DNA from: an uncultured bacterium
GTDB taxonomy: Bacteria; Chloroflexota; UBA5177; JANWHV01
NCBI GenBank assembly: GCA_963729625.1
Contig: CAVSOU010000011.1
Location: forward strand, 320,001-384,000
DNA: 64,000 nt
Reading direction: 5' to 3'
Shown: positions 6,634 to 62,009 of the stretch, in pieces
Layout of the letters: each line of letters starts with the position of its first letter
Position numbering within the stretch: position 1 is the stretch's first letter
Program-made: the position numbers and the translations under genes
Notes under the pieces: generated by a model
What the model was told of the DNA's origin: nothing
Seen by the model: the letters and a program-made list of their open reading frames with translations, nothing else
Database searches by the model: none

Positions 6634-7501
6634 AGATACGGCTGTCGCGCCGGCTGCCCGGCTCGCGCACTACGACTACAAGAGCGGGAACAAACCGACC
6701 TGGTGCCCTGGCTGCGGCGACTTCGGCGTGCTCAGCGCGCTGTACGCTGCCCTCCGCCAGACAGGGCGTCATCCAAAGGATATCGTGTCCGTATCCGGCA
6801 TCGGCTGTTCGAGCCGACTGCCGTTCCTCGTTACGAGCTATGGCTTTCATGGTGTCCACGGCCGCGCCATTCCTATTGCCACCGGGCTCAAGACGGCCAA
6901 TCCCGAGCTTACCGTGCTGGTGTTCGGCGGTGACGGCGATGCGTTCGCCATCGGGGGCGACCATTTCATGCACGCTTGTCGCCGGGATGTGGACATCACC
7001 TACGTTGTCATGGACAATTCCACATACGGCCTGACAAAGGGACAGGCCTCACCAACCAGCCGCAGGGGCTACGTTACCAAGACGACGCCCTCCGGTGTAG
7101 CCGAGACGCCAATCAATCCATTGGCGCTGGCCATGGTGTGCGGCGCAACCTACGTCGCCCAGGGAATCTCGGCCCGACCAAAGGATCTCACTGACCTGAT
7201 CGTTCAGGGTGTGGCACACAAGGGGTTCGCGTTTATCGAAGCGCTCAGCCCATGCCCTACGTTCAACAAGCTTGACACGCACGTGTACTACAAAGACAAC
7301 TCGATCGACGTGCCGCCCGATCACGACCCGTCCGACCTGGCGTCTGCGTTGCGTTTGGCCAGTTCCGGCGAGCAGATCTACACAGGGTTGATCTACCAGC
7401 GCCCGACCCCAGTATTCGGGTCGAACCATCGAGAGCTGCTTGCCACGGGCGTTCAACGGCGCGAAGACGCGTTAGGCCGGCTCTTCACTCGATTCAGCTG
7501 A
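6626..7501 (+). CDS. korB: 2-oxoacid:ferredoxin oxidoreductase subunit beta (TPP-binding)
   Basis: WCPGCGDF, SGIGCSSR, HGRAIP, GGDGD and DNSTYGLTKGQASPT motifs; overlaps the alpha subunit stop. Confidence 0.94.
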   Translation: MLEDTAVAPAARLAHYDYKSGNKPTWCPGCGDFGVLSALYAALRQTGRHPKDIVSVSGIGCSSRLPFLVTSYGFHGVHGRAIPIATGLKTANPELTVLVFGGDGDAFAIGGDHFMHACRRDVDITYVVMDNSTYGLTKGQASPTSRRGYVTKTTPSGVAETPINPLALAMVCGATYVAQGISARPKDLTDLIVQGVAHKGFAFIEALSPCPTFNKLDTHVYYKDNSIDVPPDHDPSDLASALRLASSGEQIYTGLIYQRPTPVFGSNHRELLATGVQRREDALGRLFTRFS

Positions 7502-50078: not shown

Positions 50079-53000
50079 TCAGGGCACGTTCGGGCACGAC
50101 CTTTGGTACGGCAGGTCGCCGAGGTACTGCTTCCATTCCTGGGTCGTCAAGTTGCGATTGGCGATCGCGCAGGCACGACTCGCCGGGGACGTGGACCCGA
50201 TAGACCACAGCCGGACAGGCGCGTCGAGAACTCCCCCAGTGCCAGAGGCCAGCAGCCGGCCGTCTGGACTGAAGGCAAGGCTCGTGACCTTGTCTCCGTG
50301 CCCGGCAAGGGCCGGGCCGAGCGGCTGCCTGGTCGCCACGTCCCACAGCTGGATCGTGCCATCGGAGTTGCCGGAGGCCAGAGTTTGGCCGTCGGGACTG
50401 AAGGCCACGCTGTACAGCGGGATAGTGCCATCGGTGAGGGGCGCACCGAGGGCTCGCCGGTGACCCACGTCCCAGAGCCAGAGTGCGCAGTCGGCGGAGG
50501 CCAGAATCCGGCCATCCGGGCTGAACGCCAGGCTGTTCACAGCGCCGGTATATCCCATGAGCGGCGGACCAAGTGGCCGCCGGGTTGGCACCTGCCACAG
50601 GCGAATAGTCCCGTCCTCGCCGCCGGAGGCCAGCGTCTTCCCGTCGGGACTGAAGGCCTCGCTCAGCACGGCGCCTGCGTGCCCGGCGAGCGGTGGGCCG
50701 AGGGGCTTCCGGTGCGCTACATCCCACAGGCGCACCGTGCCGTCGCCGCTGCCCGTGGCAAGCACCGTGCCGTCAGGGCTGTACGCGGCGCTGCTGGCGC
50801 TTTGCACGGCGAGGGTTGGGCCGAGCGGCCTGCCGGAACGCGCACTCCACAGGGCGTAGGAGGCGCTCCCGGTGGCCGGACCGGCGCTGGTGGCGGCCAG
50901 GGTCTTGCCGTCGTGGCTGAAGGCCACACGCAGCACGGAACCTGCCTGCCCGGCGAGCGGTGGGCCGAGTGGCTGGCCGCTCGCCACGCGCCACAGGCGG
51001 ATGGTGGCGTCATCGCCGCCCGACGCCAGGGTCGTGCCGTCCGGGCTGAAAGCCACGCTATTGACCTGACTGGTGTGCCCGGCAAGCACCCGGCTGAACG
51101 CGCCCGCACCCAGAGAGTCCCAGAGGCGCACCGAGCCGTCACTGCCGGCGGACACGAGCGACTGGCCGTCGGGGCTGAAGGCAAGGCCGTTCACCGCACC
51201 CGCATGGCCGGTGAGGGACGGACTGCGCTGTTGCCATGTCGCCGCGTCCCACAGCCGAATGGTGCCGTCCTGGCCACCGGCGGCGAGGATCGTACCGTCG
51301 GGACTGAAAGCCAGGTCAGGCACGGACTCCGAGGCCGCCGAGATCACCTGGCGGGAGAACTGCCGGGTGGCCATATCCCACAGCAGAATCGCGCCGGCTT
51401 CGCTGCCGGCGGCGAGCGTGCGGCCATTCGGGCTGAAGGCCAGACTTAACGCCGCGAAGCTGGGCCCGCCGCGCAGCGGCGGGAGGAGCACATGGTGCGC
51501 CAGGTTCCAGAGCGCGATCGTACCGCCTTCGCCGCAGGCGGCCAGGATCGTGCCGTCGGGGCTGAAGGCCACGTCATACACGTACCAGATACCCGACTGC
51601 GGAAGGGGGCCGAGCGGCCTGCGGCCCGCGACGTCCCAGAGTTGGATCGAGCCGGCGCTGTCGCCGGCGGCGAGGAACGTGCCGTCGGGGCTGAAGGCCA
51701 CGCTGGTTACGGCAACGCCCTGGTGCATCAGCGATGGCGCGAGGAGTCGGCGCTTGGCCACATCCCACAGCCGCACCGTGCCGTCGTTGCTCCCCGAGGC
51801 GAGGAGCCTGCCGTCGGGGCTGAAGGCCAGGCCGTTCACCGCCCCGGTATGGCCGGCGAGGGGCGGGCCGCTGGGCTGGCGGCTCGACGCATTCCACAGC
51901 CGAATCGTGCCGTCGGCGCTCCCTGCCGCCAGCAGTGTGCCTTTTGGGCTGAACGCCACGCTGCGCACCGGGCTGCCCTGAGCGGCGAGAAACGATAGCA
52001 GCCTGGGGTTGTAGTCGATGGCACGGAGCAAGTCGGCATGAGCCTCCGCCGAGCCGCTCAGCCGATCGGCTTCCAGGCTCAACAGCAGCGTGACCTGCAG
52101 GTCGCTGCCAAGCATCGTGCCGGCCCGCAGACCCAACTCGCGCGCCAGCTCGGCAACCGCCGCATCGCGGGCGGCCACTTCGCGTGTCCGTTCACTCGAG
52201 GCGACCGAAGCGTTGTAGCGTGCGAGCAAGGCCAGGCCGGCTGCGACTGCCAGGAGGAGGGCCAGCACCGCCGCCAGCAGACGCAGGCGCGTGGCGGCCA
52301 CGCGCGCCAGCGCCAGCCCGCGCGCCTGCCGATCCCGCTCCACGGCCGCCTGCTCAACCTCGGCGCGCTCGGCCGCGTGCAGAAAGGCCTGCTCCTCGGC
52401 GCTCGGCGTGTTCCGCGCCGACCAGTCCCGCGCCTCCGCCAGCACGGTGCCCCGATACAACTTGTCCGCTGGCCTGTCCCGCCGCGCCCAGGCCGCGGCA
52501 TCCGCGCTGATTGTCTGCTGCAGCCGCACGTCCTCGCGCGCTTCATGTAACCACTCGGCCAGGCGCCCCCACTCGCAGATGAGCGCCTCGTGACTGACCT
52601 CAAGCCGGCCCACCCCGCCCTGCTCGCTCGCCGTCAGCAGCCGTGCCGCCACGAAGGTGTCGGCGACCTCCCGCATCACGGCGGTCTCGTGCTCCCCGGG
52701 CAGAGCCAGCTCGCTCTTGGCTGCTCGCCGGCGGGTCGTGTCCTGCTCGGTGGCGCCCGGGTCGATCAGCCGCAGGAACAGGGCCCGCGCCAGGTGCCGG
52801 TGCTCGTCCGATGGCAACAGGGCGTAGGTTGCTTCGGCCTGCCGGCTCAGGGCGCCACGCACCCCACCCAACTCACGGTAGGCAGCCACGGTCAGGGCCG
52901 TTCCCTGCCGGCAGGCGACGAGCTGCTCGAGCGTGAACTGCAGCAGCGGCAGCGCTCCTGCCCGCCCTGCCACCTCGTAGAGCAGGTCGCCTACCAGACC

Positions 53001-54470
53001 GGGCTCGAACACGAGCTGCACGTCGGGCAGCGCCGCGGGCCGCTCGACGGCCTCGCGCAGCTCGGCCACGTTCATCGGTAGCACCGACTTGCTCCGTGCC
53101 TCCAGCGCCGCCCCAAGTGCTGAATACGCCATCGGCCGGTCGCAGAAGTCAGCGCGCATGGTGACAATGGCCAGCAGCGGGCCGCGCGGCTCGGCGACTG
53201 CCGTGAGCAGCAGGTCGATGAACTGCCGGCGCTCCTCGTCATCCGTGGTGAGGGTGAATAGCTCCTCGAGCTGGTCGACCACCAGCACCACTCGCTGTTC
53301 GACGCGAGGAGCCAACTTCTGTACCCACAGGTGCAAACCACGGGCATCGTCGGCGCCCAGGTCCTCGCGCAGGGCATGGATGCTCCGCTCATCCCTACCC
53401 GCCAGGGCCACGGCCAGGGCCTCGAGGGGCCGGGCACCGGGGAGCACCGGATCGAGGTAGACCCAGCGCTCGCTGCCGGGCAGGGCGCCTGCCTTCAGGC
53501 GGGATATGAGCCCGGCGCGCACCAGGCTGGACTTGCCCGAGCCGCTCGGCCCCACCACGGCAAGCAGGCGGGGTGTCGCCGCTTGCGTCGGGGCGAGGCT
53601 GGCCGCCACCGCCTCCAGCAGGGTCTGCACGAAGGCGCTCCGCCCGAAGAAGTCGCCCGCGTCCTCCTCGCCGAAGGCGCGCAGGCCCTTATAGGGGTTA
53701 CGCGGCGCTACGTGCGCGGCCGGTGCGGCAACGGCACTCTCTCCAGGCAAGGCAGCAGTGAGCGCGCCTATCGCGGCCACGAGGGCGACTACTGCCTCGG
53801 GGTAGCGGGCCCCGCGGGCGTCCACGTAGGGCACGCCGGCCAGCGCCGCCGGCGCGCAGTCGGCCCACTGCTCCCCGGCCGACCAAACGGGCACGACAGG
53901 GCGGCCGTACATCTCGGCCAGGCCGAGCTCCCTGCCGACCCAGCGCGAGGCGCGGGAAGCGGGCGAGGCCACCAGCAGCACCGCGTGGCACGCGCGCACG
54001 GCTGCCCGCAGCACTTCCGGCGGCCCTGCCCCGAACTGCGGATCACGGCGCTCGGCCCACGCGGCGATGCCGTGATCAGCGAGGTCGGCAAGCAGCCGCG
54101 CCGCGAAGTCGCCGTCCTCTACAGCATGCGACAGGACGGCGGGCGTGCCCGCCGCGCTGTTCGGCTGCCAGGTCAGCGATGGCCGGTCCTCGCAGGCGAG
54201 GCCGGGCCACGGTGCCGTCGCGCGAGCAGCACCTTCCTGCGAGGCACTCGCGGCCGCGACAAGACGGTCGCGGTCTGCAGGCGTCAGGCCCAGCGCATCG
54301 GTCAGACGGCGCGCCGTGTCGGGAAAGGGGTGGTGCGCGCCCTGCTCGAGTTTCTTGACCGCGCTCGTGCTCAGCCCCGCCCGCTCGGCCAACTCCTCCT
54401 GGGTCAGGTTGGCGTCCCGTCGATACGCGCGGAGGAGCGCTCCAAACGCCTGCGTCTCTGTGCCGGCCAT
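50079..54470 (-). CDS. NLR-like signalling protein: XRE-HTH + TIR + nSTAND1 NTPase + TM + 14 WD40 repeats (1463 aa)
   Basis: LTQEELAERAGLS...LEQG HTH; SH...D...RL..DL...G...W and SPAS..S.WV.RE TIR motifs; NPYKGL, GPSGSGKSS, LVVDQLEELFT, LPLLQFTL; hydrophobic helix; 14 AFSPDG-type repeats. Confidence 0.92.
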   Translation of the reverse strand: MAGTETQAFGALLRAYRRDANLTQEELAERAGLSTSAVKKLEQGAHHPFPDTARRLTDALGLTPADRDRLVAAASASQEGAARATAPWPGLACEDRPSLTWQPNSAAGTPAVLSHAVEDGDFAARLLADLADHGIAAWAERRDPQFGAGPPEVLRAAVRACHAVLLVASPASRASRWVGRELGLAEMYGRPVVPVWSAGEQWADCAPAALAGVPYVDARGARYPEAVVALVAAIGALTAALPGESAVAAPAAHVAPRNPYKGLRAFGEEDAGDFFGRSAFVQTLLEAVAASLAPTQAATPRLLAVVGPSGSGKSSLVRAGLISRLKAGALPGSERWVYLDPVLPGARPLEALAVALAGRDERSIHALREDLGADDARGLHLWVQKLAPRVEQRVVLVVDQLEELFTLTTDDEERRQFIDLLLTAVAEPRGPLLAIVTMRADFCDRPMAYSALGAALEARSKSVLPMNVAELREAVERPAALPDVQLVFEPGLVGDLLYEVAGRAGALPLLQFTLEQLVACRQGTALTVAAYRELGGVRGALSRQAEATYALLPSDEHRHLARALFLRLIDPGATEQDTTRRRAAKSELALPGEHETAVMREVADTFVAARLLTASEQGGVGRLEVSHEALICEWGRLAEWLHEAREDVRLQQTISADAAAWARRDRPADKLYRGTVLAEARDWSARNTPSAEEQAFLHAAERAEVEQAAVERDRQARGLALARVAATRLRLLAAVLALLLAVAAGLALLARYNASVASSERTREVAARDAAVAELARELGLRAGTMLGSDLQVTLLLSLEADRLSGSAEAHADLLRAIDYNPRLLSFLAAQGSPVRSVAFSPKGTLLAAGSADGTIRLWNASSRQPSGPPLAGHTGAVNGLAFSPDGRLLASGSNDGTVRLWDVAKRRLLAPSLMHQGVAVTSVAFSPDGTFLAAGDSAGSIQLWDVAGRRPLGPLPQSGIWYVYDVAFSPDGTILAACGEGGTIALWNLAHHVLLPPLRGGPSFAALSLAFSPNGRTLAAGSEAGAILLWDMATRQFSRQVISAASESVPDLAFSPDGTILAAGGQDGTIRLWDAATWQQRSPSLTGHAGAVNGLAFSPDGQSLVSAGSDGSVRLWDSLGAGAFSRVLAGHTSQVNSVAFSPDGTTLASGGDDATIRLWRVASGQPLGPPLAGQAGSVLRVAFSHDGKTLAATSAGPATGSASYALWSARSGRPLGPTLAVQSASSAAYSPDGTVLATGSGDGTVRLWDVAHRKPLGPPLAGHAGAVLSEAFSPDGKTLASGGEDGTIRLWQVPTRRPLGPPLMGYTGAVNSLAFSPDGRILASADCALWLWDVGHRRALGAPLTDGTIPLYSVAFSPDGQTLASGNSDGTIQLWDVATRQPLGPALAGHGDKVTSLAFSPDGRLLASGTGGVLDAPVRLWSIGSTSPASRACAIANRNLTTQEWKQYLGDLPYQRSCPNVP
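50150..51990 (-). repeat. Intragenic WD40 tandem repeats (~14 units of ~43 codons)
   Basis: Recurrent GCCGTCGGGGCTGAAGGC-like DNA motif encoding AFSPDG. Confidence 0.9.
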
Positions 54471-55510: not shown

Positions 55511-56055
55511 GCGGCGTGTTCCCGGCGCGCAGTTTACCGACCGCCTCAGGGCGTCGCCGCACCGTCTGCCGGTGCCTGGCCCTGAGGCTATCTGTGGCCA
55601 GGAGATGACCAGCGACCGATGCGACCGCCCCTGTGCGCTCTGTATCGGTCGACATGGCGCTTGTTGGCCACCTCGCAGTGGACAGGCGGGCGATGCTACT
55701 AGATATGCGCCCACGGCAGTTGCGGCGAGGCAACCATTCGCAGACAAACGCAGGACAAGGCCGTGGACCTCGTCCCGAGTAGCGCGGCAGCATAAATATG
55801 CGCGGACCTGGTTGGGGTTTCTCCCTACACCGCTTCTGGAACCGCTTTGAAAAAGCCGGCTACGGACGACGCCCGTGGCGCAAAGCCGTGCAAGAACTCA
55901 CGTCTCGCACGTTATCCTCCAGCATGCTAGGGTAGAGTCTGGTCTCGCCCTCCCCGGCCACGGGTATGGACTATCAACTCGCGGCGGGGCCGAGCCATCG
56001 TTCCCGCAGCAGGCAACGTGTGCGGGGAGGATGAAAACAGGCGATATCCTTGGCG

Positions 56056-56250
56056 ATGACCCGTGCCGAGCGGGGGCCTTTCTGGCAGCGCCACATGTCG
56101 ACGTGATCAGTATCGAGCAGAGAGACCGTGCTCCGCTCGCGGTGCCGGCGTGGTACGGCAACACCGCCGGTGATGCGCTACACGTGATCGCGTTGGAGGA
56201 CTCACGCAAGGCGCTGGCCCTGCGTGTCGCCGGCAGGTTCAGTCTCTGCT
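56056..56250 (+). pseudogene. Pyridoxamine 5'-phosphate oxidase-like (PPOX class) fragment
   Basis: MTRAER, then a frameshift to AFLAAPHV.VISI.....APLAVPAWY...SRKA..L..AGRFSLC, then loss of homology. Confidence 0.65.
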
Positions 56251-56456
56251 GCTGGCACCTCCCCAACACTTCTGAGTGCTTGGCGTTCTGGATGTCTAGA
56301 AATGCAGCGGCGAGCTGCCCAGTGTGTTCTCATCTCCTGCCGATTTCCGCCGAGCTATCGAGGCATCGAGGAGCTGAAGCGCATACGGCATACACGGTGA
56401 TGTCGCTGCACGAGGTCATGTCGAATGTGGTCGACGAGAGAGCAAGGAGAAGACTG

Positions 56457-56760
56457 ATGCAGTCCTACCGGTCGGCGCTGCCGCAACTCGGGGGCGATCT
56501 CTTTCTCACCGAGGTGGGACTTGAGACATCCCTCATATTCTATGACGGCATCGAACTGCCGTACTTCGCGACCTTCCCGCTCCTCGACACCGAAGACGCG
56601 AAGAGGAGGCTGCGAGAGTACTACCGGCCACTGCTGCGGCTGGCACGGGAAAACCATACGGGGTTCATCCTCGACACTCTGACCTGGCGCGCGAACCCTG
56701 ATTGGGGGGCGCAACTCGGCTACGACGGTGCTGCGCTCGCACGGGCCAACCGCCTGGCGA
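56457..56760 (+). pseudogene. Homocysteine S-methyltransferase family, N-terminal fragment
   Basis: YRSALPQL.G.LFLTEVGLETSLIF..G..LP.FA.F.LL...TWRANPDWG..LGY...L..AN. Homology stops after ~100 aa; the C-terminal Zn-binding GGCC region is absent. Confidence 0.8.
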
Positions 56761-56901
56761 CCACACGCCCCATCCGACTGCTGCAAGTGGCAGCCGGTCC
56801 GTGTAGGTATGCACCGGCCGCAACGTTACCGTTGCGTTGGTGCCCGTCGCTTTGCTGGAACCAGGCTGTCGCGCCGGCGCCCGGTTCCCATCACTCCGGC
56901 G

Positions 56902-58269
56902 CTACAGTCCGTAGGCAGCCTCGCCATGCTGTGTAACATCCAGTCCGAGGACCTCGTCATCTTCGTCTACGCGCAGGCCGAGGGTGCGGTCCACTGCCTT
57001 AAGCACCGCGAACGTCCCTACTGCGCAGAATGCCCACGTAGCCCCAACCTCGACAAGCTGCATGGCAATCTGGTGGTAATGCCCGTCTACGGCGCCCGAT
57101 CCTCCTCCAACCCCCGTAATCGCGGTCGTGGCAAAAATACCGGTCGCCAAGGTGCCCCAGGTGCCGCCCATGCCATGACACGCGAATACGTCCAGCGCGT
57201 CATCGGCACGCAGCATATTCTTGAGTTGCGTGCTCAGGTAGCAGACCGCGCCGGCGCCCATGCCGATGAGCATCGCACCGCTCACATCCACGTAACCGCA
57301 CGCCGGGGTGATAGCTACCATGCCGCAGATGGCGCCGAATGCGCCGCCGACCGCGCTGGGCTGGCCTCGGTGCCACCAGCCGATGGTGAGATAGGTCAGA
57401 CAGGCCATAGCGCCGGCGGTGTTGGTCATCACGAATGCTGAAGTGGCCGAGGATCCCGCGGCCACCGCGCTGCCGGCGTTGAAGCCAAACCAGCCGAACC
57501 ACAGCAGCGACGCGCCAAGCAGGACATAGGTGGAATCGTGCGGCTCCATCTTGGCGGTCCCCAGGCCGATGCGGGGTCCGAGCATCTTGGCGGCCACGAG
57601 TGCCGAGACACCTGAGCTCATCTCCACGACGCTGCCGCCGGCGAAATCCAGCACGTGCAGATCATGCAGCCAACCGCCATGCCCCCACACCCAGTGCGCG
57701 AGGGGATCGTAGACGCAGGTAGCCCACAGCAGGCTGAAGAGAAGATACGCTTTGAAACGCTTCCGCTCGGCGAACGCTCCGGTGATCAGCGCCGGAGTAA
57801 TCACGGCGAACATCATCTGGAAGATCATGAATGCCTGGTGGGGAACCGTTGGCGCATAGCCAAACGGATCGGGTCGACTCGTGCTGACTCCACGCAACGC
57901 GGCCCAGTCGAGTCCACCGATGAGGTGCCAGTGATCTGGCCCGAACGCCAGGGAATATCCCCACAGCACCCACTGAAGGCTGATCACGCACAGCATGAAG
58001 AAGCTATGCATGATCGTGGTCAGCACATTCTTGTGGCGGACCAGACCGCCGTAGAAGAAGCCGAGTGCCGGAGTCATCAGCATCACCAGCGCCGCCGACA
58101 TGAGCACCCACGTCGTATCACCGCTACTGATCGCGGTCGCTGCCGCGACGCCGGCGGTCGCACGTGAGAGAGCCCCGGCGGCATGTGCGGAGTTCGGGAG
58201 AACCAACAGGGCCAGGGAGGGCGCGCCAGCCACTGTCAGGAATACTTGGGAGCGCTTCATCGACGTCAC
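56902..58269 (-). CDS. amt: Ammonium transporter, paralog 1 (Glu-His pore variant)
   Basis: LVMLMTP.L.FFYGG, FQMMFA.IT.ALI.GAFAER, DFAGGSVVE (His->Glu), WFGWFGFNAGS, DDALDVFACHG, GLD..QHGE.AY. Start GTG 58269 or ATG 58260. Confidence 0.96.
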   Translation of the reverse strand: MTSMKRSQVFLTVAGAPSLALLVLPNSAHAAGALSRATAGVAAATAISSGDTTWVLMSAALVMLMTPALGFFYGGLVRHKNVLTTIMHSFFMLCVISLQWVLWGYSLAFGPDHWHLIGGLDWAALRGVSTSRPDPFGYAPTVPHQAFMIFQMMFAVITPALITGAFAERKRFKAYLLFSLLWATCVYDPLAHWVWGHGGWLHDLHVLDFAGGSVVEMSSGVSALVAAKMLGPRIGLGTAKMEPHDSTYVLLGASLLWFGWFGFNAGSAVAAGSSATSAFVMTNTAGAMACLTYLTIGWWHRGQPSAVGGAFGAICGMVAITPACGYVDVSGAMLIGMGAGAVCYLSTQLKNMLRADDALDVFACHGMGGTWGTLATGIFATTAITGVGGGSGAVDGHYHQIAMQLVEVGATWAFCAVGTFAVLKAVDRTLGLRVDEDDEVLGLDVTQHGEAAYGL

Positions 58270-58376
58270 GTATCACTACTCTTGAGCAGGTAGTATCGAC
58301 GCAGCCGCGCGTCATTCGCATATGTGCGGAGTCCTCGCCTCACCGCAGTGATAGCGCTGCGGAATCGACGCATAAA

Positions 58377-58427
58377 CGCAGACATCGCCTGAGCGACACG
58401 GCGTGCCGCCTACAGGCGATGTCTGCG
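58377..58427 (-). terminator. Strong hairpin between small peptide 1 and amt paralog 1 (attenuator, terminator or stabiliser)
   Basis: 15-bp perfect stem CGCAGACATCGCCTG/CAGGCGATGTCTGCG plus an inner stem; only a short TTTAT tail on the minus strand. Confidence 0.5.
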
Positions 58428-58536
58428 CTGCCAGTGCCAGACTGCGGTGCGGTCAAGGGCATGCGCGCCTGCAGAAAAGAGATCTCTCTATTGCGGTGCG
58501 AACGGCCTCGACAACACATCCGATCGCAGAGGTCAG

Positions 58537-58659
58537 TTACGCGGTCGCGGGGAGTGCGGACATGACAGGTGCGGCCTCGGTCCTCTTGGCCTTACGATCG
58601 GGGAGCGCTACCCACGCTATGACGTGAGCGGCGAAAGCAACGAATACGATAGCGGCCAT
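58537..58659 (-). CDS. Small single-TM peptide upstream of amt paralog 1 (40 aa, MAAIVFVAFAAHVIAWVALPDRKAKRTEAAPVMSALPATA)
   Basis: Paralog of 60708-60833 with mostly synonymous third-position differences over FAAHV.AWVALPDRKA; GAAAGAGA upstream. Confidence 0.85.
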   Translation of the reverse strand: MAAIVFVAFAAHVIAWVALPDRKAKRTEAAPVMSALPATA

Positions 58660-58913
58660 TGTGCAATCTCTTTCATGTGGTGCTCCGTCGGCAATCGCCG
58701 GCGAACATGTACGAGTACGGGATTGCGCGCCATCATGGCGCACAACTGCTCGATCGGCTACGACCGAGCAACCCCAAAGGGTCCGTGCATCAATGCGCCT
58801 TCGCTCGAACGCTGAGCGGGGACTTACCAGGCCGGCTCGTTCTTCACGACGGCCGAGTGGACGTGGCTACCTCGCCAGACAACGGACCGACACATACCTC
58901 CTTTTCCTTTGAA

Positions 58914-59011
58914 CGGCGCCCTCGCCGGCAGGCTCAGCCGATTGCCCAGACACCGAGACAACGTGCCCAATCGGTTGCAGACACCTTACCAAAGCACCCT
59001 TCGAGTGTCAA
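58914..59011 (-). promoter_or_regulatory. sigma70 promoter and structured leader of the peptide1-amt1 unit
   Basis: TTGACA (59011-59006), 17 nt, TAAGGT (58988-58983); then a long 5' hairpin (CCGATTG...CAATCGG) and the hexaloop hairpin CGGC-GAGGGC-GCCG (58927-58914). Confidence 0.7.
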
Positions 59012-59037
59012 CTACCGGAATTGCTCACCTGACCGGG

Positions 59038-59077
59038 GAAAACGGAAGAAGCGAGATCCTTCGACCTCGCTTCTTTC
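59038..59077 (-). terminator. Intrinsic terminator after amt paralog 2
   Basis: Minus strand GAAAGAAGCGAG-GTCGAAGGAT-CTCGCTTCTTCCGTTTT, 18 nt after the stop codon. Confidence 0.75.
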
Positions 59078-59095
59078 GCCAGAGACTGATCGCGC

Positions 59096-60457
59096 CTAGA
59101 TCCCGTACGCAGCCTCACCGTGCTGCGACACGTCGAGCCCCAGCACCTCCTCCTTCTCATCTACCCGCAGTCCTACCGCGGCATTGACAATCTTGAGAAG
59201 AACGAACGTACCAACGCCGGCATAGAGCCACGTGGCGCCAATGTCGGCTCCCTGATACAGCAGTTGCTTCCAATGCCCATCGACGACGCCGGATCCGCCG
59301 GGGTTGATGGCGGTCGTAGCAAAGATACCGGTCGCCAGGGCGCCCCAGGTGCCGCCCATCCCGTGGCAGGCAAAGACGTCGAGCGCGTCGTCGGCCATGA
59401 TGATGTTCTTCAGTTGCGCGCTGAAGTAGCAGATCGTGCCGGCGCCCATGCCGATCAGAATAGAACCACTGACGTCGACAAAGCCGGATGCAGGCGTGAT
59501 AGCTACCAGTCCGCAGACCGCACCGACCGCAGCGCCGATGGCGCTCGGCTGACCCTTGTGCCACCAGCTGACCGTCAGGTACGTAAGTCCGGCCATCGCG
59601 GTGGCCGTATTGGTCACCACGAATGCTGACGTCGCGAGCCCGCCGGCCGCCACCGCGCTACCCGCGTTGAAGCCGAACCAGCCGAACCAGAGCAGTGAAG
59701 CTCCCAGTACCACATATGTCGCGTCGTGCGGCTCCATCTTGTCTTTGCCGAGTCCGATGCGCGGGCCAAGCATCTTGGCGGCGACGAGGGCTGAGACACC
59801 GGAGCTCATGTGTACGACGCTGCCACCGGCAAAGTCGAGCGCTCCAAGGTTTCGCAGCCAACCATTGTCGCCCCACACCCAATGCGCCAGTGGGTCGTAG
59901 ATGAACGTTGCCCACAACAGGCTGAAAAGCACGTACGCCTTAAACCGCTTCCGCTCAGCGAATGCGCCTGTAATCAGCGCGGGCGTGATCACGGCAAACA
60001 TCATCTGGAAGACCATGTACGCCTGATGCGGAACGGTGGGAGCGTAGCCGTAGGGGTCAGGAGCGTACGCGCTGACGTTCTTCAGCAACGCCCAGTCAAG
60101 TCCGCCTATCAGGTGCCCGTGGTCGGGACCAAAGGCCAGAGAATATCCCCAGAGGACCCACTGAACGCTGATCAGGCACAGAATGAAGAAACTGTGCATG
60201 ATTGTTGACAACGCATTCTTGGGGCGAACTAGGCCTCCATAGAAGAAGCCCAGTGCAGGCGTCATCAGCATGACGAGCGCTGCCGACACAAGCACCCAGG
60301 ACGTATCTCCTGAGCTCGGTGCCCACGGTGGCGCGGCGCTGGGGTGCGACGCAAGACGTGTAGCAGCCTCGGTTGCGGCATGGACGGCGTTAGGCATGGC
60401 GCCCATGAGGAAGCCAAAGAGTATCGCCACCATGATGAGCATAGGGGTGCGCTTCAT
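59096..60457 (-). CDS. amt: Ammonium transporter, paralog 2 (canonical twin-His)
   Basis: Same Amt motifs with DFAGGSVVH and DVFACHG; N-terminal signal-like segment; ATG 60457 after GGAG. Confidence 0.96.
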   Translation of the reverse strand: MKRTPMLIMVAILFGFLMGAMPNAVHAATEAATRLASHPSAAPPWAPSSGDTSWVLVSAALVMLMTPALGFFYGGLVRPKNALSTIMHSFFILCLISVQWVLWGYSLAFGPDHGHLIGGLDWALLKNVSAYAPDPYGYAPTVPHQAYMVFQMMFAVITPALITGAFAERKRFKAYVLFSLLWATFIYDPLAHWVWGDNGWLRNLGALDFAGGSVVHMSSGVSALVAAKMLGPRIGLGKDKMEPHDATYVVLGASLLWFGWFGFNAGSAVAAGGLATSAFVVTNTATAMAGLTYLTVSWWHKGQPSAIGAAVGAVCGLVAITPASGFVDVSGSILIGMGAGTICYFSAQLKNIIMADDALDVFACHGMGGTWGALATGIFATTAINPGGSGVVDGHWKQLLYQGADIGATWLYAGVGTFVLLKIVNAAVGLRVDEKEEVLGLDVSQHGEAAYGI

Positions 60458-60707
60458 CGGCAAATCTGCTCCAAATGCTAGAGTGCGGGACTCGTCCAAA
60501 CGACGGTCCCACCAGAACGACACATGCTCTGTCGGCGGTGCGGACGGCGCCGAACCAACTTCCGGAATCGACAGAGCGGCACAGCGTACGCGTCGAACGG
60601 ACGATCAGCCCACATGCTCACCATCGACAACCGGCCGCGATACGTGCGACCAGGGCGTGCCGCGGAGAGGGCGAGCGGGAATGGCCCTGGCCGCCGTCGC
60701 GATCGAG

Positions 60708-60833
60708 TCAGGCCAAGGCTGGTACGCTAATCGGCACCTGCGCGGGCCGGCTCTCTCTCGCTTTGCGATCGGGAAGAGCGACCCAAGCGACGACGTGAGC
60801 GGCGAAGAGGACGAAAACAAGTACGGCCATCAT
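60708..60833 (-). CDS. Small single-TM peptide upstream of amt paralog 2 (41 aa, MMAVLVFVLFAAHVVAWVALPDRKARESRPAQVPISVPALA); not in the ORF track
   Basis: Hand translation; GAAGGAG RBS directly upstream; paralog of 58537-58659. Confidence 0.87.
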   Translation of the reverse strand: MMAVLVFVLFAAHVVAWVALPDRKARESRPAQVPISVPALA

Positions 60834-61052
60834 GCGATCTCCTTCGTGGCGAAGCACCGAACGGTACCGGTGCTAGCTCTTGGCTGTCGCGGATAGGGTG
60901 CGAGCTCACTGCTGCGAGCACATCCAGAGCACCCAGGACCGCTAAACCAATGACGACATACTGTGCAACAGTGCGCCTGGGCTCAATCGCCGAGCCACGA
61001 AATCCGACCTCCGCGATTCGGAGGACTATGAGTTGATGGCAACGCCGCCAGG

Positions 61053-61098
61053 AAAATAGAAAAGCGCCCTCGTCTCAACGACGACCGGCGCCCTTGCC
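61053..61098 (-). terminator. Leader attenuator: hexaloop hairpin overlapping an intrinsic terminator (ANTAR-like)
   Basis: Minus strand GGC-AAGGGC-GCC, whose 3' half is also the 5' arm of GCGCCGGTCGTC-GTTGA-GACGAGGGCGC-TTTTCTATTTT. Confidence 0.7.
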
Positions 61099-61152
61099 AG
61101 GAGAGGTACGGAAGGCGTCCACCAGATCACTGTGTCCGCTTCCTTACACTGT

Positions 61153-61182
61153 ACCGTAGCAAAACAAGTTAGTGCTTGTCAA
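61153..61182 (-). promoter_or_regulatory. sigma70 promoter of the peptide2-amt2 unit
   Basis: TTGACA (61182-61177, overlapping the M50 stop), 18 nt, TG-C-TACGGT (61158-61153). Confidence 0.7.
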
Positions 61183-62009
61183 GGACCTATCCAGCGTGCG
61201 ATCGCAGCCGCGTTCACAAACATCGCCACCCCGCCTACGAGCGTCAGCCCATACGCACAGGCGACGAGAAGCCGAACAGCGATAGGGACGTGAAAGCTCG
61301 CCTGCCACTCTTGAAGACCAGTTGGATCGCCGCGCTCCATGCGAGCGCGCAGGCCATCGGCATACCGCCGCCACCTGTTCACGCGGTGTGCGGCTATCAG
61401 AGCCGCCAGAATGGGAGCCGCAACCCCACCTAGGGTGTACAGCAGGCCGGCGTGCAGCAACCACGCGGCGAGCGCCATGGGGAACACGAGAATTGCTGGG
61501 TACGGCAACGCGCGGCTGATCAGCCCTCCGTCCAGAGGCTCAAAGGGCAGGAGGTTGAAGAGATTCAGTCCAATCGCCGTTGCCGCACCTACGACTACCT
61601 GCTGTTCAAGAGCGCCCTCCAGCGTTCTCGACGCGACAAGCACCGCGGCTTCGGCGCTCATGATGCCGGCGACCGGCCCTGCCAGAAAGATCAGCGCGAT
61701 GTCCGCACTGCGCAGCATGGGTCTGCCAGCACGCACGAAAGCGCCGATAACCGGCAAAAGCCGTACCGGACCGGGCGAGTACCCCAGAATGCGCATCATG
61801 TACCGATGGGCGAACTCGTGGTCGAGAATCGTCGCTACGAGCACCAATGCCGCTAGAGGGCCGAGGAACGCGAAGCTCGCCACACTCAGCCCGACGCTGA
61901 TCACCGGGTACTTCGTCACGCCATCCACGGCGGCGCGCAACCGGAGTCGCGCAGCCGAGTGGGCCACTGCATTGTGGGCGAAATACGGAGCAAGATTCTC
62001 TGTTGTCAC
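61179..62009 (-). CDS. Site-2 protease (peptidase M50) family membrane protein
   Basis: HEFAH zinc motif, LAGP, NLFNLLPFEPLDGG. Confidence 0.9.
   Translation of the reverse strand: MTTENLAPYFAHNAVAHSAARLRLRAAVDGVTKYPVISVGLSVASFAFLGPLAALVLVATILDHEFAHRYMMRILGYSPGPVRLLPVIGAFVRAGRPMLRSADIALIFLAGPVAGIMSAEAAVLVASRTLEGALEQQVVVGAATAIGLNLFNLLPFEPLDGGLISRALPYPAILVFPMALAAWLLHAGLLYTLGGVAAPILAALIAAHRVNRWRRYADGLRARMERGDPTGLQEWQASFHVPIAVRLLVACAYGLTLVGGVAMFVNAAAIARWIGP

Follow-up and report, generated by a model that had tools for sequence, protein, structure and literature searches.

A family of small predicted membrane peptides encoded beside ammonium transporter genes in Chloroflexota

The pairing of ammonium transporter (Amt) genes with glnK is treated as near-universal in prokaryotes, and the normal slot of glnK is just downstream of amt. 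In this study we describe another kind of small gene that lies beside amt, found in a 64,000-nucleotide (nt) stretch of the genome of an uncultured Chloroflexota bacterium (assembly GCA_963729625.1, contig CAVSOU010000011.1, positions 320,001 to 384,000; this whole stretch is called the window, and positions are counted from its first letter), where two short open reading frames (ORFs), pep1 and pep2, each encode a predicted single-pass membrane peptide. GlnK, a soluble effector-sensing trimer of about 112 amino acids (aa), blocks the channel by plugging its exit on the cytoplasmic side (PMC10710835). It is the only entry listed for Amt in the accessible portion of that review of small proteins, which names no small membrane partner, and a term search of the accessible text of a second review (PMC12648545) found no mention of ammonium or AmtB. 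Small membrane partners have been reported for other transporters: KdpF (29 aa), one of the subunits of the K+ pump KdpFABC, is regarded as a stabiliser of the complex (PMC12648545), and proteins of the AcrZ, MgtS, MgtR and MntS type, which are shorter than 50 aa and mostly consist of a single helix, change the specificity, activity or turnover of the transporter to which they bind (PMC10710835). In the archaeon Methanosarcina mazei, the 61-aa protein sP36 targets AmtB1 and is needed for its regulation (PMC10714827); it is cytoplasmic, goes to the membrane on nitrogen upshift and mediates GlnK1 binding (PMC10714827; PMC11456600). In the partly accessible literature that we covered, sP36 is the one small protein on record acting on an Amt, and the open-access papers and bioRxiv, to the extent that their text was available, held nothing closer on small membrane partners of Amt or on P-II proteins in Chloroflexi.

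An earlier note, made from the letters of the window, had placed two tiny ORFs some 250-270 nt upstream of both of its amt genes; their coordinates and minus-strand orientation were borne out, and the gaps between each peptide and the likely amt ATG measure 276 nt (pep1-amt1) and 252 nt (pep2-amt2). The pep2 ORF (60708..60833) encodes 41 aa plus a stop codon, with GAAGGAG 6 nt 5' of its ATG, and pep1 (58537..58659) encodes 40 aa plus a stop codon, with GAAAGAG 5' of its ATG. The two products belong to the same family and are 63% identical; each has a single hydrophobic helix-like stretch (best 17-residue hydropathy 2.66 for pep2 and 2.46 for pep1), and pep2 shows the pattern F-x6-W-x3-P followed by a basic tail. 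Both transporter genes match PF00909 (Ammonium_transp): amt2 (59096..60455, minus strand; E 1.1e-120), whose likely start is the ATG at 60455 while the longest ORF opens at a GTG at 60523, and amt1 (56902..58260, minus strand; E 2.9e-119), with a likely start at the ATG at 58260 and the longest ORF opening at a GTG at 58269. Read along the minus strand, the gene order is M50-family peptidase, pep2, amt2, pep1 and amt1. The whole assembly (21 contigs, 87% complete) has no amt gene and no peptide copy besides these two of each; among the weak peptide matches on other contigs, the one close to glnA proved on inspection to be no peptide gene.

Our study confirms that pep1 and pep2 are real peptide genes conserved as protein, and the purifying selection that the earlier note had read from synonymous codon changes is evident in a larger set of sequences. 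We compared 12 DNA copies, namely the two of the window, five from four other genomes of its genus and five from metagenome contigs. Their 19-codon core varies at 8 of 19 first, 6 of 19 second and 18 of 19 third codon positions, the summed proportion of synonymous differences (pS) is 0.63 against 0.15 for nonsynonymous ones (pN), and the pairwise ratio of nonsynonymous to synonymous rates (dN/dS) ranges from 0.03 to 0.23. Between pep1 and pep2, DNA identity amounts to 75% over the first 23 codons and to 44-48% in the tail and in both flanks; the previous statement that the flanking DNA has no evident similarity needs qualifying, since a 15-nt leader motif and leader hairpins are shared. The seven genus copies all place their ATG 6-10 nt past an AGGAG- or GAAAGAG-type motif, a motif resembling a Shine-Dalgarno (SD) sequence together with an ATG is also present in four further distant copies, and 18 of the 19 copies put through a scripted SD motif test pass it, the 19th having GAGGGG. 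In addition, the length changes among family members keep the reading frame. The combination of third-position variation with a conserved ATG and SD-like motif is the signature of a translated gene.

The link between the peptide and amt is strong, extends across the phylum and is kept through changes in gene order and copy number. It was evaluated in a sample of 401 Chloroflexota genomes, one per species, in which incomplete metagenome-assembled genomes (MAGs) limit the meaning of absences. Elsewhere in the phylum, weak matches from other families proved to be located immediately 3' of amt genes; with these amt-flanking matches added to the profile (A6), 39 hits were obtained at E<=0.003 in 34 of the 401 genomes, of which 31 have an adjacent amt gene in the same orientation, 7 have none and 1 is at a contig end, so that the homologues and the amt linkage on which the earlier note depended are found well outside the window. 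Two weaker hits (in the genomes that we label G113 and G032) likewise lie just 3' of amt genes. In the window's genus, each of the five genomes has the peptide 5' of an amt gene and in the same orientation, as do five of six metagenome loci, the sixth copy (locus L049) being at a contig end, where it adjoins glnA and a gene for an ANTAR response regulator, with no amt within its 4.1 kb. Outside the genus the order is amt and then peptide, that is, the window's genus is inverted: the distance from the amt stop codon to the peptide ATG is 21-43 nt in 13 of 18 distant loci and 80-236 nt in the other five, and each of these downstream peptides has its own SD-like motif. Tandem duplications were also identified, with the layout amt-pep-amt-pep in G388 (L098, C5:19000-22500) and amt-pep-pep in G358 (L099, C43:8000-11500). 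As a control, we scanned the surroundings of 11 amt genes without a profile hit, among them the divergent paralogues of G190 and of G172 and an amt of G275 that is linked to glnK, for ORFs of 22-75 aa with a hydrophobic window and an SD motif; none of the 11 had a comparable small hydrophobic ORF, and the same scan recovered all four peptides of G388 and G358.

The transporters that accompany the peptide also group together. A quick maximum-likelihood tree was made from 33 Amt sequences, of which 24 are linked to a peptide and 9 are not; it left out the truncated or partial L047, L051, L090 and L096 and also L073, L079 and L081 (near-duplicates of L078 and L080). The peptide-linked sequences cluster with 2 label changes, a number as low as this being reached in 0 of 500 shuffles; a single origin is compatible with this tree. 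G226, a genome flagged as unpublished, accounts for one case of adjacency and supplies a single row to each of alignments A7 and A8 and to the tree, and five others (G038, G145, G173, G271 and G343) enter the tallies only; the conclusions do not depend on any of the six.

In a set of 5.8 billion proteins, a profile of seven genus peptides matched 36, of 40-62 aa, part of which bear the name 'hypothetical protein [Chloroflexota bacterium]' and the others no name; in a set of 1.84 billion it matched 19 cluster representatives. The broader profile from alignment A8, with 32 members, retrieved 33 further database proteins, all called 'hypothetical protein', with records from Ca. Chlorohelix allophototropha, Oscillochloris trichoides, Ca. 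Oscillochloris fontis, Chloroflexales bacterium and Ca. Limnocylindria, and every family record that bears an organism name belongs to a Chloroflexota lineage. Orthologues in related MAG records are likewise labelled 'hypothetical protein', and a search of the ESM Atlas, which does not contain the window peptide, with the homologue P0055 returned only 'hypothetical protein' clusters, with scores below 0.9. Neither of the exact pep1 and pep2 sequences is in a collection of 15 billion proteins, which fits their being unannotated here, as the earlier note had it. No described family matches them. When 14 members were scanned (both window peptides and 12 distant ones), no Pfam or NCBIfam family reached its cut-off, and a search of PDB chains gave no match at E<=1. 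FixQ/CcoQ (PF05545) was considered and discarded, since one window peptide scores 13.2 bits (E 0.089) against a gathering score of 29 and the other does not match; KdpF, AcrZ and other named small-protein families gave no profile match in Pfam or NCBIfam. No form fused to Amt was seen among longer proteins, where the profile had only three matches, of 92-107 aa and without a Pfam domain on record, which is weak evidence on this point; these three are probably over-extended ORF calls.

Members are 26-49 aa long, F-x6-W-x3-P is present in all 32 rows of A8, and the best 17-residue hydropathy window lies between 2.06 and 3.13 in all 32. The only residues invariant across the family are this F, W and P; conservation sits in the transmembrane residues, and the C-terminus is variable. 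The first description of the window peptides as one transmembrane helix with a central His and Trp and a basic tail therefore has to be narrowed: the helix-like hydrophobic stretch and the Trp are general, but the mid-helix His is kept only in the window's subfamily and two relatives from its class (G118 and G100), with M, L, Q or I elsewhere, and the tail, basic in the subfamily, varies in charge across the family. Judged from its members' sequences, the family is an unnamed, small, Chloroflexota-restricted group of predicted single-pass membrane peptides.

Special attention was given to P-II proteins, the group to which GlnK belongs. The P-II profile (PF00543), which detected P-II in 13 of 14 control genomes, did not find it in the window's genome (87% complete), in any of five genomes of the genus (the window's and four others) or in any of 21 genomes of the class, eight of which are of high quality; in the phylum sample P-II is present in 142 of 401 genomes (135 over the cut-off). 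A tblastn search with the P-II protein of G275 gave no match in 30 peptide loci or in the window and recovered only the G275 control locus (L097). The absence of an adjacent GlnK that the earlier note had remarked upon is thus confirmed at the locus and extends to the genome, genus and class. The window peptides are not themselves P-II proteins, as they have 40-41 aa against about 100-112 aa of the P-II domain and do not match PF00543; what they share with glnK is gene position beside amt (31 of 39 hits), and the layout amt-glnK-amt-glnK of G275 parallels the amt-pep-amt-pep of G388. Among 27 genomes with an amt-linked peptide, eight have P-II elsewhere at E<=0.001 (five at E<=1e-7). This proportion, set beside the 142 of 401 of the phylum, shows no clear complementarity; a comparison of P-II and peptide across genomes was not significant, related genomes not being independent, and a stand-in for GlnK is therefore unsupported as a phyletic pattern.

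We consider it probable, though far from assured, that the peptide is an accessory membrane subunit or modulator associated with Amt, that is, a hitherto unrecognised partner of the transporter. It would insert as a single transmembrane helix in which F, W and P, at positions i, i+7 and i+11, fall roughly on one face, and this face may pack against lipid-exposed helices of Amt. The peptide could then stabilise or tune the channel, as KdpF does with KdpABC or AcrZ with AcrB, and the peptides would act together with one clade of Amt ammonium channels. Matched co-expression would follow from their placement, which is 21-43 nt 3' of amt in most lineages and, in the window's genus, 5' of it behind a shared promoter-like element, and because the operonic spacing is tight we lean to a constitutive subunit rather than a conditional switch. 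The basic tail of the window's subfamily, with a charge of +2, points to a topology with the N-terminus outside and the C-terminus inside. What the earlier note had said about an accessory or regulator of Amt is strengthened by a real gene and by a strong phylum-wide link to amt, but the partnership itself we infer from the genes. A complex prediction with one Amt monomer (residues 40-455, 24-row alignment) and the peptide (45-row alignment) gave scores of 0.26 and 0.06 (mark 0.32) and counts neither for nor against binding; the natural state of the channel is a trimer.

The genome G190 is informative about the mode of action. It keeps both peptides and only one of the two amt genes, the orthologue of amt2 (this grouping of amt2 with the sole peptide-linked amt of G190 has an SH-aLRT, the Shimodaira-Hasegawa-like approximate likelihood ratio, of 99). 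Its pepB is the orthologue of pep1, to which it compares with a dN/dS of 0.10; it lies 676 nt downstream of an amt and is followed by an ORF of no assigned family and then a BrkB-family gene, with no amt after it. The conservation of pepB without a following amt points to a trans-acting product rather than a cis-acting leader peptide and argues for a peptide that acts in trans. Co-duplication upstream of both transporters, as described earlier, is therefore correct in part, since G190 retains both peptides with one of the two amt genes.

Several observations weigh against an Amt partner. Seven of the 39 hits are away from amt, and three of these form a coherent subfamily of one genus (L069 1462-1599, minus strand; L074 1495-1629, plus strand; L082 1489-1623, plus strand); at two of its three loci the peptide sits between P-type ATPase and amidase genes, on the opposite strand, so that some members may work without an adjacent Amt or with another partner. 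The peptide is seen in about 27 of the 290 amt-bearing genomes among the 401, a number that is a lower bound since short divergent peptides are easily missed. Over the first eight tail residues, 14 members have a positive charge, 13 a negative one and 5 a charge of zero, which means that topology and any cytoplasmic interaction are not conserved in a simple way. In the genus and metagenome loci, the gap between peptide and amt ranges from about 130 to 630 nt, and a long perfect hairpin lies between pep1 and amt1 (58372..58426, minus strand; arms 58426-58413 and 58391-58378, followed by GTTTAT), with a predicted stability of -46.4 kcal/mol (z -7.0; 0 of 200 shuffles as stable); with both of these, co-transcription in the window cannot be taken for granted. 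A small membrane protein independent of Amt, for instance one that responds to stress, resembles type I toxins or partners some other membrane protein, whose position beside amt came from shared nitrogen regulation or inherited synteny, would account for the hits away from amt, for the persistence of pepB in G190 with no amt following and for the metagenome copy near glnA and the ANTAR regulator, a location that hints at a shared nitrogen regulon. We regard such a peptide as unlikely, because the adjacency to amt outlasts order inversion, tandem duplication and deep divergence across many families, the 21-43 nt gap of 13 of the 18 distant loci is what one expects of two genes that work together in an operon, the invariant F, W and P share one face of the helix, and the same pepB is only 676 nt downstream of an amt.

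A special case of the association with Amt is a gate independent of P-II, in which the peptide replaces GlnK as a conditional inhibitor or regulator of Amt in lineages that lack P-II, as the earlier note had suggested when it spoke of a substitute for GlnK gating. The part of that suggestion that holds is positional: outside the genus the peptide occupies exactly the slot of glnK (compare G275 with G388), no P-II gene is present at the 30 searched peptide loci or in the window, and P-II was detected in none of the 21 class genomes and in only 142 of 401 in the phylum despite amt being detected in 290. However, the eight peptide genomes with P-II elsewhere represent a rate similar to that of the phylum, most amt-bearing genomes without P-II also lack a detected peptide, a helix of 26-49 aa with a variable tail offers no evident effector-binding site or means of sensing nitrogen, and tight operonic coupling suits a stoichiometric subunit better than a switch; we therefore judge a gate of this kind improbable. 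A leader peptide, encoded by an upstream ORF whose translation controls the downstream amt in cis, would agree with the window's genus, where the peptide precedes amt behind a long structured leader and a strong hairpin followed by GTTTAT separates pep1 from amt1. It is nevertheless very unlikely: a cis-acting leader would always be upstream, and the family is downstream of amt in most lineages (18 distant loci); pepB of G190 is conserved with no amt following; constraint falls on the transmembrane residues, while the C-terminus, the usual site of arrest or attenuation, is variable; and the hairpin is situated 110-165 nt past the stop codon, too distant for ribosome-coupled attenuation. Finally, an untranslated conserved RNA or DNA element that merely happens to be open can be almost entirely discounted in view of the three-base periodicity of variation (18 of 19 third positions), the ATG with an SD-like motif kept in about 30 loci, the frame-preserving length changes and an Rfam 15 scan of 56500-61500, which gave no family at E<=1 on the ORFs and only two sub-threshold, chance-level matches, neither of them on the ORFs. 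Of the sequencing runs listed for the region, none is recorded as RNA.

The regions upstream of the peptides in the window's genus have features of their own. A 15-nt motif, GGCGCAYTGNTGCAC, is located about 125 nt 5' of pep1 (58785..58799, minus strand) and about 130 nt 5' of pep2 (60963..60977, minus strand, with a GCTC/GAGC hairpin before it), and its exact matches in the genome are restricted to these two leaders. As a genome-wide nitrogen operator it was rejected, with 8 one-mismatch hits against 7 control hits. The leaders share the GCTC/GAGC hairpin, GGCGCAYTGNTGCAC and a hairpin just 5' of the SD motif; some pairs are compensatory, and 16 of 45 predicted pairs differ at both bases in one or more of five sequences. 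These leaders of about 300 nt (58660-58990 and 60834-61160, minus strand, in the window, and also in L038 and L039) may represent an undescribed cis-regulatory element. Those of the pep2 type (window, L038 and L039) have a terminator-like hairpin followed by a T-run, which in the window copy is no better than shuffles (z -1.0).

Two promoter-like elements were read by eye, TTGACA-N18-TACGGT (61153..61182, minus strand) about 320 nt 5' of pep2 and TTGACA-N17-TAAGGT (58983..59011, minus strand) about 325 nt 5' of pep1, between amt2 and pep1; the TTTGCTACGGTA part of the pep2 element recurs upstream of the peptide in L040, L041, L050 and L052. A strict sigma-70 consensus scan gave no promoter-like site, and the sole terminator-like site is inside amt2. 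The claim that each peptide shares one promoter unit with its amt was not borne out for the copy at 58.5 kb, where the -46.4 kcal/mol hairpin stands between pep1 and amt1. A hairpin of about -46 kcal/mol (z -7.2) but of different sequence also follows pepB in G190 (L038, about 7177-7222, plus strand), and the one between pep1 and amt1 could possibly be a terminator, an attenuator, a processing site or a stabiliser. In the window's genome, a gene for an ANTAR response regulator is directly 5' of glnA (G000:C7:245130-246950), and the same ANTAR-glnA pair is next to the peptide copy on the metagenome contig (L049:1654-4105). One idea is that an ANTAR antiterminator may act on hairpin-rich nitrogen leaders.

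Among the neighbouring genes, the one for the M50 (site-2 protease) family member (61179-62009, minus strand) is directly 5' of the pep2 leader. We discarded it as a functional partner: it adjoins the peptide only in G000, G190 and G127 among 31 loci searched, and since these are the three closest genomes its position probably reflects local synteny with no functional link. A putative plus-strand ORF of 353 aa (55875-56936) converges on the 3' end of amt1 (56902-58269, minus strand) with an overlap of about 35 nt. Further along, an ORF of 1463 aa (50079-54470, minus strand) appears, judged from its translation alone, to have a helix-turn-helix-like N-terminus, a central region resembling nucleoside triphosphatases and many WD40-like repeats.

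These results concern a class in which P-II was not detected (0 of 21 genomes) and a phylum sample most of which is in the same situation, yet in which amt is found in 290 of 401 genomes; one clade of Chloroflexota amt genes carries a conserved mini-gene, in the position of glnK. The control of ammonium uptake and glutamine synthetase without P-II is of interest also apart from the peptide. Should the peptide bind Amt, this transporter would join the short list of those with small membrane subunits, and there would be a handle on the control of ammonium uptake without P-II and a testable example of a small protein, conserved but without a family name, which gene finders overlooked at these boundaries in the present genome. 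A more ambitious reading is that Chloroflexota, about two thirds of which lack P-II in our sample, control or build their main Amt channels by means of a dedicated one-helix peptide in the glnK slot, which would amount to regulation or assembly independent of P-II and to the first integral-membrane partner described for a bacterial Amt/Mep/Rh protein; we regard this wider proposal as doubtful, if somewhat better placed than the gate discussed above. Since the named carriers include Oscillochloris trichoides and Ca. Chlorohelix allophototropha, bench tests should be feasible.

In comparison with known systems, the peptide resembles KdpF in being a very small, predicted single-pass product encoded in the operon of the transporter, but the two have no sequence relation in Pfam, and the partner of KdpF is a P-type ATPase, whereas that of the peptide would be a channel-type Amt trimer, whose binding we infer only. 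The small single-pass accessory peptides of the AcrZ, MgtS, MgtR and MntS type offer a similar parallel: the 32 members of our family, all of 26-49 aa with a hydropathy of 2.06-3.13, have the size and helix of that class, and their association with one transporter is conserved (31 of 39 hits beside amt; 0 of 11 controls). There is no homology to these proteins, however, and their genes are usually unlinked to the target or regulated apart from it, whereas the Chloroflexota peptide is operonic with amt. With GlnK the peptide shares the genomic slot beside amt and presumably, if it binds, the same transporter target, but it is a membrane helix with no P-II match and co-occurs with P-II in eight of 27 genomes. 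The likeness to sP36 is that of a small protein targeting an Amt; compared by description, sP36 is cytoplasmic and dependent on GlnK1, whereas the peptide is a predicted integral helix from genomes that mostly lack P-II. On this reading the peptide would represent a new family in a familiar role, serving a class of transporters for which no partner of this sort has been recorded.

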